From the NCBI GenBank assembly GCA_028711905.1, contig JAQTRI010000054.1, positions 1 to 13,389 on the forward strand: 13,389 nt of DNA. Reading direction: 5' to 3'. Source of the DNA: Candidatus Wallbacteria bacterium. Its GTDB lineage: Bacteria > Muiribacteriota > JAQTZZ01. The position numbers were made by a program, and so were the translations under genes. Each line of letters begins with the position of its first letter. Positions within the stretch are counted from its first letter, which is position 1. The notes beneath the pieces were generated by a model. It was given only the letters and a program-made list of their open reading frames with translations. It made no database searches and had not been told where the DNA came from. Positions 2,984-6,865 of the stretch are shown one piece after another.

Positions 2984-3012
2984 TTGACATCACCGTGATA
3001 TCAAAGTAATAT
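2984..3012 (+). promoter_or_regulatory. Sigma70-type promoter for the SPFH operon. The -35 is TTGACA (2984-2989), the spacer is 17 bp, and the -10 is TAATAT (3007-3012). The spacer contains the perfect 8-bp palindrome TGATATCA.
   Basis: Hexamers and spacing read directly. An AT-rich tract (TATTTTATATTGTA) lies upstream. An AGGAGG SD at 3029-3034 sits 6 nt before the ATG at 3041. Confidence 0.55.
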
Positions 3013-3040
3013 TAGATTAAGCGAAGACCAGGAGGTCAAC

Positions 3041-3994
3041 ATGTCCAAAGAAAAAACCGTTTCCGTAGCCAATGGCTGGCCGGTGCTGTTCCTGACTATT
3101 GCGCTCTACATCGGTGTTCCGCTCTGCTTCCTTGGGGCTGTGATCAATGAAAGCCCGGCCTGGATGGTTCATGCTGTTATCTGCCTTGGGGCAGCCATTT
3201 TTCTGTCCTGCGGATTTTTTACCCTGCAGCCCAATGAAGCTCAGCTGCTGATGATGTTCGGCGCTTACTGCGGCACAGTTCGCGAATCAGGATTCCACTG
3301 GGTCAACCCCTTTAAGCTCGGCAAAAAAGATGTGCCTCTGGAAACTCCAGTCACAAGGCGGGACTCGCATGGAATCCAGCATACATCTTTCAGCACCAAG
3401 CAGCGCATGAAACTGTCCCTGCGTACCCGCAATTTCGAGAGCGAGCGGCTGAAAGTCAATGATCAGCGCGGCAATCCCATTGAAATCGCTGCAGTTGTTG
3501 TCTGGCGCATTGAGGATACAGCCCAGGCAATGTTTGATGTCGATGATTACGAAAATTATGTGCGCGTACAGAGCGAATCTGCTCTCAGGCATCTGGCGAA
3601 TTCATATCCATACGACCATGTGGATGGAGATGAAGTAACTTTGCGCGGTGATTGCGATGAAGTGGCCCACGCCCTTCAGAAAGAACTCCAGGAACGGTTG
3701 AAAAAAGCCGGTGTCCAGGTTGAAGAAGCCCGAATCACCCATTTGGCGTATGCACCGGAAATCGCCCAGACCATGCTGCGACGCCAGCAGGCCGAAGCAG
3801 TGATTTCAGCCAGGCAGAAAATTGTCCATGGTGCGGTGAGTATGGTGGAAATGGCTCTCAAGGAACTGTCGGAAAAAAATGTGCTGCAGCTGGACGAAGA
3901 AAAAAAGGCAGCCATGGTTTCCAACCTGCTGGTAGTGCTGTGCAGCGAATCTGAAACTCAGCCTGTGATCAACACTGGAACACTGTACCACTGA
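3041..3994 (+). CDS. SPFH / Band-7 (stomatin-prohibitin-flotillin-HflKC) family membrane protein, 317 aa.
   Basis: There are two N-terminal hydrophobic helices ([23 protein letters not shown] and [19 protein letters not shown]). The SPFH core begins at [30 protein letters not shown], which parallels the typical v.pnEravv.rfGky..t..pGlhf.iPf. The C-terminal tail is charged and coiled-coil-like. The gene has a strong SD. Confidence 0.85.
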
Positions 3995-3995
3995 A

Positions 3996-4172
3996 ATGGC
4001 TGACAAAAAATCCTTTCTGCTGCGCCTGGATCCGAAAATAATGGCGGAACTCGAAGCCTGTGCGGCTTCTGAGTTCCGCAGTATCAACGGCCAGATCGAA
4101 TACCTGCTCAAACAGGCTATCGACAGGCACAAATCCAAACCTGAAAAGCCCTGTCTCGACCGGAAGGGTTGA
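3996..4172 (+). CDS. Arc/Mnt-family ribbon-helix-helix DNA-binding protein, 58 aa. It is missing from the supplied ORF track.
   Basis: The translation is MADKKSFLLRLDPKIMAELEACAASEFRSINGQIEYLLKQAIDRHKSKPEKPCLDRKG. The core aligns position-for-position with phage P22 Arc (qFnLRwPrevldlvrkvAeengRSvNsEIyqrvmesf) at F-L-R-(L/W)-P, A, R-S-x-N-x-(E/Q)-I and the hydrophobic helix B. The ATG lies 1 nt after the SPFH stop (TGAaATG), indicating translational coupling. Its stop lies 14 nt before the ankyrin gene start. Confidence 0.65.
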   Translation: MADKKSFLLRLDPKIMAELEACAASEFRSINGQIEYLLKQAIDRHKSKPEKPCLDRKG

Positions 4173-4186
4173 AAAGGGGATGTGTG

Positions 4187-6865
4187 ATGACTGGCCTGAA
4201 GATCTCTGTCATTTTCTACCTGTGCTTCTTCCGGGGTCTGGCCGCAGGTGCAACAGGCGAAACTACTGTGGCCGTCAGGACCACTCTGGAAGCAGTGGGC
4301 ACGGTTGAAACCAGGGTTCGAACAGCGGAAGTCGCTGCCAGGCTATTCCTGCCCGAAGGATTTTTAGAAAAGCAGGCGGAGGTCAGGAACCAGACATCCG
4401 GCGGTGATATCAGGATTGTGGAGCAGAGGCTGGAAGTGCTCCGCAACAGAATGTATCTGCGGCACTGGCAAGGCCTGGAGAGAGTTTACCGGGTCATGAA
4501 CGAGCAGCCCATGCGGGCCTGGGCTGCCGAAGTCAATCGGATCGGATTAAAACAGCTCCTGCGGGACACGGCAAAGGTGCATGCGCTTCTTTTTGGACTG
4601 ACTGTGGATGTATACAAATCCAGCCTTTCCAATGCGCTGGACAGCGTAAAAGGCGCTTTGACCATGGCTGCGGAACCTGTGGTTCAGGAACTGATGACAG
4701 AAATGGATGCCGGCAGAACGGCCTCAGCCGAAGTTCTCCTGAAAAAAGGAATTGCAGCGCTCGGTGATCCGTGTCTGGCGGGACTGGTGTTAAGCCAGAC
4801 CTGCAGCACCCTGAATCCTGACATGTGGGAACTGGTGCGGCCTTTTCTGAAGCTGCCTCTGACTGAGCTTTTCGCTCGCTCGCTCGAAGCCGCAGCGTAT
4901 CACGGCAATGCTCTGCTGTGCGCGTATTTTCTCAACAGCAGAGACTGCCGATCAATCAAGTTTATCCATACAAAATTCCCTTATCTCTGGCTGCTGATCA
5001 GGGAAAACCACCAGGACCTGCTGCGGCAGATGGCTGACTGTGGCAGTGTGGAAGTAACCTGTGAAATCGCTGGAGTGATCACTGATCCTGATCTGGCACG
5101 CAAACTGTCATTGCACAGACTCGGATCCATCGTGTTCCAGCACGCGGCCAATGCTGACATAGCCGGCTACCTGATCGAATCCGGAGTGCCGGTCAACGAA
5201 GGCTTTGCTTCGGGTTCGGCACTGGCGAATGTCGAAGACCCTGATGTGGCCAGGGTATTGATCGATCATGGAGCAGTACTGTGCTGGGAAAGCGATGGAT
5301 CAAGCCCTGATTACGGCAGGCAGGTTTTCAAATCCTGGGATGAAACGCCGGTCAGGTCTGTCAGAAACCGTAAGGTTCTGGAAGTGCTGTTTCAAAACGG
5401 ACTGGATCTCAACAAGAAGGATCAATATGGAAAAACGCCGCTGCATTGTTGGAACCTGAGTGCTGATGCCGTGGAGTTTCTGATTGAAAAGGGGTTGTCG
5501 GTCAATGAGTGTGACAATTCCGGCCGGACTCCGCTTTTCTATTCATGCTCGAACATGGAAGTTGTGAAACTGCTGCTTGAGCATGGGGCTGACCCGAAGG
5601 TCCGGAGCGAGAATAATGCGACTCTGTTGCACGCCTGGTCCGCATCGGACGCTTTCGTCAGTCTGATGATCGAAAAAGGTGTGGATGTCAAGGCAATCGA
5701 TGATAAAGGTTCTACTCCGCTGCATCAGGTCTACGGCAATCCCGTCATTGTTGACCTGCTGGTCAGGGCCGGTGCAGATCCCAACGCTCAAGACAATGAG
5801 GGCCGAACCCCGCTGATGTCCGAATGGCTCGAACTGGATGTGGCCAGGGCTCTTGTGGCAGCAGGCTGTAACCCTGAAATCCGCGACAGAAAGGGCAGAA
5901 CGGCCATTGACCTGTCCAAAAACACGGCTGTGACCGAGTATCTGAAAAGCCTGGGTTTGAAGCGCAAAGCGGTGAATTTACTGGAGGTTGATGAACAGGA
6001 GTTCGTACTGGCCGATCCGGCTGTGTTTCTTGAAGACGCGGAAAACGGCACTGATCTTACGGTCCGTTACCAGAATAACCGGGAAGGTCGCTATAACAAA
6101 GGCGATCTGCCTTTTTTCCGGCTTCTTTTGAATCTGAATTACAACGCTCTGGTTTATGATGCACAAGCCACGAAGCTGGCTGAGCTGTTTATCGAGCAGG
6201 GCGGAGAGATCGATACCCGGGACTCATCCGGCAGGACCATGATGATGATCTGTCCGGTGCCGGGATTGACCGGCATGCTCCTCGACAGGGGTGCTGATCC
6301 CTGGTTAACGGACAACTCCGGACGCTGCGCTTTGTTTTATGCTGTGGGTCAATGCTATGAAACCACGCGGGATTACACCGGGCCTCCGGATTTTAATCAG
6401 AAGACCACTATGCTTCTGCTGCAGGGCATGAAAAACCGGCGTCCAGGGTTTGTGCCTGACCAGGTGACGGATAAGGAGGGACAGACACCAATATTCTGGT
6501 GCAACGATGTCCAGGCAGTCTTGCTGGCAGCTTCTGGATTCAGTGTCAATATCCAGGATCACGAAGGGATGACCCCACTGATGCGCAGCTTAGGAAACTT
6601 CAGAACATTGATCAAACTGGGAGCTGATGCCGGAGCTGTGGACAATGAAGGCAATACAGCGCTGCATTATCTGATGAGAGGATTGCGCAACGGTCAATAC
6701 ACTTCGGTAGATCGTGAACTTCTGGATGCGTTGCAAAAGGGCGGATGCGACCCGTATGCCAGAAATAAAACAGGGGTTTCCGCACTGGATCTTCTGGACG
6801 AGATCAAGAATCCTGAGAACCAGGTGGAAGTTGAGCAGATCAGGCGGCTTCTGTCAGGTAAGTGA
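4187..6865 (+). CDS. Secreted or periplasmic ankyrin-repeat protein, 892 aa. A Sec-type signal peptide is followed by about 270 aa with no recognisable domain and then two blocks of ANK repeats.
   Basis: The ATG at 4187 is preferred over the TTG at 4169 because an AAGGGGA SD lies 6 nt upstream of the ATG. The signal peptide is MTGLKISVIFYLCFFRGLAAGA^TGE. ANK block 1 contains DQYGKTPLHCW, NSGRTPLFYSC..VVKLLLEHGADPKV, DKGSTPLHQV..VDLLVRAGADPNAQDNEGRTPLM and DRKGRTAIDLS. ANK block 2 contains DSSGRTMMMI..LLDRGADPW, DKEGQTPIFW, DHEGMTPLMR and DNEGNTALHYL. Confidence 0.85.
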   Translation: MTGLKISVIFYLCFFRGLAAGATGETTVAVRTTLEAVGTVETRVRTAEVAARLFLPEGFLEKQAEVRNQTSGGDIRIVEQRLEVLRNRMYLRHWQGLERVYRVMNEQPMRAWAAEVNRIGLKQLLRDTAKVHALLFGLTVDVYKSSLSNALDSVKGALTMAAEPVVQELMTEMDAGRTASAEVLLKKGIAALGDPCLAGLVLSQTCSTLNPDMWELVRPFLKLPLTELFARSLEAAAYHGNALLCAYFLNSRDCRSIKFIHTKFPYLWLLIRENHQDLLRQMADCGSVEVTCEIAGVITDPDLARKLSLHRLGSIVFQHAANADIAGYLIESGVPVNEGFASGSALANVEDPDVARVLIDHGAVLCWESDGSSPDYGRQVFKSWDETPVRSVRNRKVLEVLFQNGLDLNKKDQYGKTPLHCWNLSADAVEFLIEKGLSVNECDNSGRTPLFYSCSNMEVVKLLLEHGADPKVRSENNATLLHAWSASDAFVSLMIEKGVDVKAIDDKGSTPLHQVYGNPVIVDLLVRAGADPNAQDNEGRTPLMSEWLELDVARALVAAGCNPEIRDRKGRTAIDLSKNTAVTEYLKSLGLKRKAVNLLEVDEQEFVLADPAVFLEDAENGTDLTVRYQNNREGRYNKGDLPFFRLLLNLNYNALVYDAQATKLAELFIEQGGEIDTRDSSGRTMMMICPVPGLTGMLLDRGADPWLTDNSGRCALFYAVGQCYETTRDYTGPPDFNQKTTMLLLQGMKNRRPGFVPDQVTDKEGQTPIFWCNDVQAVLLAASGFSVNIQDHEGMTPLMRSLGNFRTLIKLGADAGAVDNEGNTALHYLMRGLRNGQYTSVDRELLDALQKGGCDPYARNKTGVSALDLLDEIKNPENQVEVEQIRRLLSGK

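Follow-up and report, generated by a model that had tools for sequence, protein, structure and literature searches.

A conserved SPFH and Arc-type gene pair with a candidate phased-box operator, and its ankyrin-repeat passenger, in a Candidatus Wallbacteria contig

SPFH proteins are found throughout the bacteria. What they do is poorly understood except in the case of HflK/C and the flotillins, and their textbook partner is NfeD. The DNA studied here, a 13,389-bp contig of a Candidatus Wallbacteria metagenome-assembled genome (MAG) that we refer to throughout as the window, raises the question of what other partners such a protein might keep: its SPFH gene is followed at close spacing by a gene for a small ribbon-helix-helix (RHH) protein, and then by one for a large ankyrin-repeat (ANK) protein (Table 1). 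A first-pass annotation of the same stretch had read these three genes as a single operon, and the open reading frame (ORF) coordinates, spacings and promoter-like site that it gave all agree with our ORF map and the raw sequence. We propose, with a probability of about 0.7, that the unit at work here is a two-gene SPFH-RHH cassette under negative autoregulation by RHH dimers bound to an array of short boxes over its promoter, and that the ANK gene is a local passenger.

Table 1. Positions of the cassette, its candidate control elements and the ankyrin gene (window coordinates; protein positions in residues)
Feature	Position	Strand	Details
Candidate operator, four boxes, 11-bp period	2974-3014	+	TTATATTG 2974, TGACATCA 2985, TGATATCA 2996, TAATATTA 3007
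Sigma-70-type promoter	2984-3012	+	-35 TTGACA 2984-2989, 17-nt spacer, -10 TAATAT 3007-3012; 10/12 matches
Shine-Dalgarno AGGAGG	3030-3035	+	5 nt ahead of the SPFH ATG; read from sequence
SPFH ORF	3041-3994	+	317 aa; stop TGA 3992-3994
RHH ORF	3996-4172	+	58 aa; stop 4170-4172
Shine-Dalgarno-like AAGGGGA	4174-4180	+	for the ANK gene; within the 14-nt RHH/ANK spacer
ANK ORF	4187-6865	+	892 aa; NCBI calls the same start
ANK protein layout			signal-peptide-like aa 1-~23; orphan helical region aa ~25-300; ANK blocks aa ~312-590 and ~660-880

The SPFH-RHH pair across bacteria

A scan with the SPFH protein, over one genome per species, confirmed at least 558 stretches, of which 80 loci were kept; the DNA downstream of SPFH was then searched by tblastn with the 58-aa protein in the 78 loci that reach far enough, the other two ending at a contig edge. 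All 78 carry an RHH homologue downstream, in the same orientation and mostly 3-60 nt from the SPFH gene, and the carriers belong to at least 12 phyla, with groups as varied as the Verrucomicrobiota (including Akkermansia), Acidobacteriota, Planctomycetota, Gammaproteobacteria, Bacteroidota, Chloroflexota, Actinomycetota, Bacillota, Deinococcota, Ignavibacteriota and Eisenbacteria. The reverse test agrees, in that a Band_7 gene ends 3-16 nt upstream in 5/5 long contigs picked via the RHH gene, the flanking genes of these five loci being ordinary and mutually unrelated. Both partners are abundant, with at least 8000 clusters retrieved by an RHH profile search and at least 8000 clusters (at 90% identity) of SPFH homologues. 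Identity across loci ranges over 47-74% for SPFH and 40-64% for the RHH core, and the closest Wallbacteria relative (L081) has 74% and 64% identity in the two proteins. The same pair is found in cultured carriers, where the small gene goes under the name “HicB family antitoxin” (Bacillus thuringiensis), “hypothetical” (Deinococcus) or “Arc family DNA-binding protein” (Parabacteroides). Taken together these data show that SPFH and RHH make up a self-contained, widely conserved two-gene cassette, and the earlier statement that the SPFH partner is not NfeD is borne out, the downstream partner being an RHH gene in 78/78 loci.

The product of the first gene contains a Band_7 domain (PF01145) at 97.8 bits against a Pfam cut-off of 23.6 (E = 9.6e-28), and hydropathy places two hydrophobic segments at its N terminus (aa ~12-36 and 38-64). 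An AlphaFold2 (AF2) model of moderate confidence (predicted local distance difference test, pLDDT, 66.8) has helices at 13-36, 39-56, 239-278 and 286-302. Besides its SPFH domain the protein would thus have a hydrophobic hairpin of two helices near the N terminus (aa ~12-60) and a long helix towards the C terminus. The hairpin, together with a Lys-bearing N terminus and the positive-inside rule, suggests that the SPFH domain is cytoplasmic. In a fold search with Foldseek stomatin (9oh9) came first at 1.8e-9, followed by prohibitin and HflK/C, and erlin, flotillin and QmcA were matched as well, identity being about 20% across these cage-forming proteins; the protein scores well under the cut-offs of the HflK equivalog models of NCBIfam. 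With its Band_7 match above threshold, its predicted N-terminal anchor and its long C-terminal helix, we classify it from these features as a stomatin-like SPFH membrane scaffold.

The RHH start codon is separated from the SPFH stop codon by a single base and has no Shine-Dalgarno of its own, and because of this translational coupling of RHH to SPFH termination is suggested. The protein was described as a hidden repressor by the first-pass annotation; in fact its NCBI record (MDD5090100.1) already carries the name “Arc family DNA binding domain-containing protein”. Searching the PDB with the single window sequence returned no match, and a family profile (A1, from an alignment of 36 orthologues) was needed to bring out the relationship. 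This profile aligns at full length with P22 Arc structures (1u9p at 2e-5, 1arq at 0.011), covering the strand, helix A and helix B and having the RSVN-x-(E/Q)I motif in common with them, and it also matches 9pio (3e-3) and AmrZ (0.047). Residues K5, R10, A23, R28, S29 and N31 are invariant among the 36 orthologues, in which the conserved core covers aa 1-46 and the tail beyond ~46 is variable, of low complexity and Lys/Arg-rich in nearly all. Pfam Arc matches were obtained for 15/36 members and RHH_5 matches for 25/36, and PHROGs places the window protein with Arc-like repressors at 1.7e-5. The Arc-type strand-helix-helix core is present at the family level, with the window protein alone below threshold, and judged by its profile the small protein is an Arc-type RHH.

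Not all loci are as compact as the window. The SPFH-RHH gap is about 300-980 nt long in 18/78 loci (among them L007, L017, L031, L033, L035, L040, L041, L051, L057, L068, L069, L073, L078 and L080), and most of these gaps hold an extra gene of ~165-215 aa. These extra products are mostly membrane protein-like; those of L017 and L033 (Verrucomicrobiota) match bPH_5 and that of L041 matches DUF1648, the others tested having no Pfam match, and the gene may be an optional third component. In L081 the gap measures 51 nt, compared with 1 nt in the window, and holds a hairpin with a 12-bp stem (8965-8992) that may set differential expression or mRNA stability.

A phased box array over the cassette promoter

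Both promoter hexamers of the cassette lie inside boxes, the -35 in box 2 and the -10 in box 4, and at the four positions listed in Table 1 the boxes are spaced about one helical turn apart and overlap the promoter that they would regulate. Promoter matches alone are not above chance (5 in the window vs 2.8 +/- 1.6 in shuffles). The three-box pattern has one match in the window and 0 in 200 shuffles, and L081 has identical promoter hexamers and spacing together with the same box layout. Across a promoter set of 81 regions (79 scan loci, the window and L081), three phased boxes align upstream of SPFH in 71 when anchored on the central box, with the consensus tGATaTCAnttrTGATATCAntttRATATCA. Moreover, the motif survives upstream of SPFH where other DNA similarity is gone, with TGATATCA recurring every 11 bp and three to four boxes in nearly all loci; in B. 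thuringiensis, Deinococcus and Parabacteroides, that is in the Bacillota, Deinococcota and Bacteroidota, the array stands in DNA without other visible similarity. TGATATC occurs upstream of SPFH in 69/79 loci, at a density of 4.85 per kb, about 73-fold above the 0.066 per kb of the remaining DNA of these loci, and the phased pair ATATC-N6-ATATC is found 41 times in 15.9 kb of upstream DNA vs 3 times in 835 kb of flanking DNA (both strands).

The Arc repressor binds its 21-bp operator as two dimers, at subsites one helical turn apart that overlap the promoter. The phased palindromic boxes fit this geometry, with the RHH protein as the likely box-binder. The gene order, the conserved pair, the conserved and phased boxes, the way these overlie the promoter and the resemblance to Arc in sequence are all observed; from them we infer DNA binding and repression by the RHH protein, and the cassette would work as follows. 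Transcription would start at the box-embedded promoter, and SPFH and RHH would be translated from one message. RHH dimers would then bind the palindromic TGATATCA boxes, and with these 11 bp apart neighbouring dimers would sit on one face of the DNA and bind cooperatively, as the two Arc dimers do. Since the boxes cover both the -35 and the -10, their occupancy would be expected to block RNA polymerase, and the resulting negative feedback would limit how much of an oligomeric membrane scaffold is made. In the window the ANK gene, probably on the same transcript and with its own Shine-Dalgarno, would come under RHH control as well. That the RHH protein is the likely autoregulator of the operon had been suggested from the window alone, and this suggestion gains strong comparative support from the phased TGATATCA boxes that overlie the promoter in most loci.

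Several observations weigh against simple autoregulation through the boxes and have to be set beside this. About 10/81 promoter regions lack an exact central box and have degenerate versions only. A metagenome scan with the strict pattern ATATC-N5-TGATATCA-N4-RATATCA returned 48 stretches, only 4 of them SPFH-RHH promoters, the rest being satellites, one repeat element and other promoters, and the box motif is thus not exclusive to the cassette. The window RHH protein has only sub-threshold Pfam matches (RHH_5, HicB and ParD_like; 20.9 vs 26 bits). The loci are phylogenetically related, so that the counts overstate the number of independent events, and the assignment of the boxes to the RHH protein is one of guilt by association. 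As a test of specificity we rejected the strict scan, since it picks up satellites and the repeat element and, box 1 being variable, misses all but a small minority of true promoters; its yield of 4 SPFH-RHH promoters is nonetheless far above chance. A co-variation between an RHH strand residue and box 3 (Val or Ala with TAATATCA in 24/25, Leu with G in 27/38) is real but confounded by phylogeny, and we give it little weight.

Similar arrays stand in other settings too. Phased TGATATCA arrays are found upstream of a short-chain dehydrogenase gene in L096, L117 and L118, and in further recurring contexts in L105, L113 and L129. In L091 (199-819) and L115 (199-918) a TGATATCAAAGTAATATCA array, identical over 17 nt to boxes 3-4 of the window, precedes a gene for a leaderless ANK-repeat protein of 186-219 aa, which may be fortuitous or may hint at a recurrence of ANK genes behind such promoters. 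Within the window itself a second exact TGATATCA at 4405-4412, in the ANK coding region, is a lone box with no phased partner, at a frequency that fits chance. In L093 (690-1337) four 11-bp-phased GATATC boxes lie directly upstream of an unrelated operon, that of a VapB-like RHH antitoxin and a PIN-like toxin, and therefore such box arrays do accompany RHH-encoding operons.

The spread of similar arrays over many unrelated contexts in the motif scan would also be consistent with boxes that form an UP-like element or an unusual promoter, or that serve some other regulator, the RHH protein acting elsewhere. We consider this quite improbable: promoter consensus differs between phyla, the Bacteroidota among them, and the array travels with the cassette through such phyla regardless; the RHH protein is the only regulator that travels with it, and palindromic boxes at 11-bp phasing match the geometry of Arc.

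The L093 array bears on a second possibility, namely that the pair resembles a toxin-antitoxin system in which SPFH is a toxic protein, neutralised by an RHH antitoxin that represses the operon too. The weak HicB and ParD_like matches of the window protein are of this kind, as is the label “HicB family antitoxin” that the annotation pipeline PGAP has put on the orthologues of B. thuringiensis and Syntrophothermus, and the VapBC operon of L093 has the same kind of array ahead of it. However, RHH conservation ends at about residue 46, so there is no conserved toxin-binding extension; the neighbour is an SPFH gene, with no toxin match in PADLOC, Pfam or NCBIfam; and the flanks of annotated loci are ordinary and mutually unrelated rather than islands. 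To our knowledge SPFH proteins are not known as toxins, and we regard this reading as extremely unlikely.

A third possibility builds on autoregulation and is compatible with it. Here the assembled SPFH cage would titrate the RHH protein, or the membrane would do so via the basic tail of that protein, so that the promoter reports the state of the scaffold or membrane; PspA-PspF and Mlc-PtsG are precedents for such partner switching. The one-to-one coupling across phyla, the unusual conservation of both proteins, the predicted cytoplasmic position of the SPFH domain and the Lys/Arg-rich tail that follows the RHH core in nearly all orthologues are in keeping with it. Yet the tail sequence is not conserved, and simple autoregulation accounts for all of the observations, and we therefore think partner switching unlikely. 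As with the toxin-antitoxin reading and the three-gene system discussed below, we rank it as less likely than simple autoregulation.

The ankyrin gene and its surroundings

How, then, does the third gene fit? Its product is recognised by Pfam above threshold through Ank_2 (133 bits, E = 5e-39), Ank_4 (120 bits) and Ank (101 bits), and we count about 12 ANK-like repeats in two blocks, in agreement with the roughly 10 reported before. The N terminus of the ANK protein (MTGLK / ISVIFYLCFF / RGLAAG-A) has the character of n-, h- and c-regions with small residues at -3 and -1, and it contains no 19-residue segment of transmembrane-level hydropathy; it resembles a Sec signal and not a membrane anchor, and export is plausible as a prediction. 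For the first ~250 aa an exhaustive HMMER search among 1.84 billion representative proteins found no homologue, and with the ANK protein as query HMMER returned itself and weak ANK-like repeat matches from aa 249/312 onward. A word-index search with the protein found nothing, itself included, and its single-sequence AF2 model (pLDDT 40) is uninformative. Against the Legionella-type effector models of NCBIfam the protein falls far below the cut-offs (e.g. AnkG, 74 vs 500 bits).

The close packing of the three genes would fit a three-component system of SPFH, RHH and secreted ANK protein, in which ANK replaces NfeD as the scaffold partner. With 1 nt and 14 nt the two spacings are tight, the + strand has no predicted promoter-like site in 3041-4187, and no terminator-like site is predicted at either junction (3994/3996 and 4172/4187); terminator-like predictions number 9 in all, vs 4.8 +/- 2.6 in shuffles, and all fall within coding sequence. 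Further points in its favour are the box array ahead of the small ANK gene in L091 and L115 and a neighbour in an Acidobacteriota MAG (L030, 7195-8718, minus strand), where a gene for a 507-aa ANK protein with a hydrophobic N-terminal leader stands immediately after the RHH gene. The 80 loci contain no further ANK neighbour, and because this one is convergent to the RHH gene it is not co-transcribed with it. By tblastn, none of the 80 other loci, L081 included, has the ANK gene at the operon position; in L081 an unrelated 335-aa gene with its own promoter-like site follows 168 nt after RHH. The gene after RHH is diverse across 72 loci, and on the opposite strand in 39 of them. Finally, the N-terminal ~250 aa have no detectable homologue, and cleavage of the leader would put the ANK protein across the membrane from the SPFH domain, which is predicted to be cytoplasmic.

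We conclude that the three-component system is largely refuted by the neighbourhood data, and as an account of the window we hold it to be very unlikely. From its absence at the other loci and its orphan N terminus it follows that the ANK gene is a lineage-specific addition, a local 3' passenger and not a component of the conserved cassette. Of the arrangement first proposed the tight coupling of SPFH and RHH stands (78/78, and 5/5 in reverse), but not the place of ANK within it (0/80): the pair recurs in other loci and the triple never does. Given a gap of 14 nt and a junction with no predicted terminator, ANK is probably co-transcribed with the cassette in the window. A functional link between ANK and SPFH is unsupported, and the coupling is a local accident of gene order.

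Transcription may continue further. No terminator-like structure follows the ANK stop codon (window 6866-7025), the 3' region folding no better than shuffles (z = 0.95), and cassette transcription may read through towards glyA, ahead of which there is a TTGAAC-17-TATAAT site at 6971-6999. On the other side of the cassette, a 65-aa ORF (2674-2921) has weak helix-turn-helix (HTH) matches (Bac_DnaA_C, HTH_23) and three near-identical copies in the same MAG, and at 2867-2921 its 3' end passes into three C-rich repeats in tandem, CCTGACCCCCCACCTGGTG; this region may be a small repeat element or the remnant of an insertion sequence (IS) just upstream of the cassette. Rfam has no family match anywhere in the window. 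We also considered and rejected the 335-aa product of L081 as a counterpart of the ANK N-terminal domain (E = 0.76), and a reading of the locus as a defence system, PADLOC finding nothing for SPFH or RHH; its matches to the ANK protein (PDC-M72A and “Ankyrin”) run through the repeat region only.

Implications and comparison with known systems

These results point to an SPFH subfamily of very large size, with at least 8000 clusters at 90% identity, that has a dedicated, predicted Arc-type repressor as its constant partner and a recognisable, conserved candidate operator. This gives an annotation rule for thousands of small ORFs whose present label is “hypothetical” or “HicB antitoxin”, and it removes a misleading lead, the ankyrin coupling not being a system. 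It also gives a testable regulatory model with an experimental handle in cultured carriers (Akkermansia, Parabacteroides, B. thuringiensis and Deinococcus), in which deletion of the repressor or mutation of the boxes should over-express the scaffold. Going further, one could imagine the SPFH-Arc cassette as an undescribed pan-bacterial, self-reporting membrane module: with the repressor drawn off by the SPFH cage, or by the membrane via the basic tail, the TGATATCA-box promoter would respond to scaffold or membrane state, and genes that acquire boxes (ANK in L091 and L115) or join the transcript (ANK in the window) would form a small membrane-state regulon; we judge this extension to be decidedly unlikely.

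Among known systems the nearest to the cassette on the SPFH side are the SPFH-NfeD operons (QmcA-YbbJ and YqiK-YqiJ of Escherichia coli, PH1511-PH1510 of Pyrococcus), in which, too, a tight bicistron joins the gene for a stomatin-like SPFH protein anchored in the membrane to that for a small conserved partner, and with which the cassette shares the fold and architecture seen in cage-forming SPFH proteins. In the cassette, however, the partner is predicted to be a soluble Arc-type DNA-binding protein and not the membrane protein NfeD. Of the window genes around the cassette that were tested (AAA ATPase, HTH ORF, RHH and ANK), none matched NfeD, the upstream neighbours at other loci not having been scanned with Pfam. 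A survey by Hinderhofer et al. 2009 (PMC2636767) set out 12 prokaryotic SPFH subfamilies, of which 6-12 were without documented member proteins, and names NfeD as a recurrent partner, with no mention of a DNA-binding one.

RHH-antitoxin operons of the VapBC/FitAB type, such as that of L093, resemble the cassette in having an RHH gene in a bicistron and a promoter with phased GATATC boxes; they differ in that the cassette RHH is the second gene, lacks a conserved toxin-binding tail and is partnered by SPFH instead of a PIN toxin. The ankyrin effectors of the Legionella and Coxiella Dot/Icm systems, and other bacterial ANK proteins, have tandem ANK repeats like those of the window protein, which matches them through its repeats only and has an orphan N-terminal region. 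On the regulator side the closest parallel is P22 Arc, likewise a small RHH protein (about 53-58 aa) whose whole chain aligns with the family profile, including RSVN-x-(E/Q)I, and which, as is generally known, acts at operator subsites one helical turn apart that overlap a promoter. Here too there are differences, since the cassette is chromosomal and non-phage, the gene that it would regulate is a membrane scaffold, three to four palindromic 8-bp boxes take the place of the single 21-bp operator of Arc, and the window RHH protein alone is only marginally similar in sequence. Our literature search found no paper that links SPFH to an RHH/Arc partner or describes a TGATATCA operator, so that the SPFH-Arc pairing and its operator appear to be undescribed, a new combination put together from parts that are each of a known kind.

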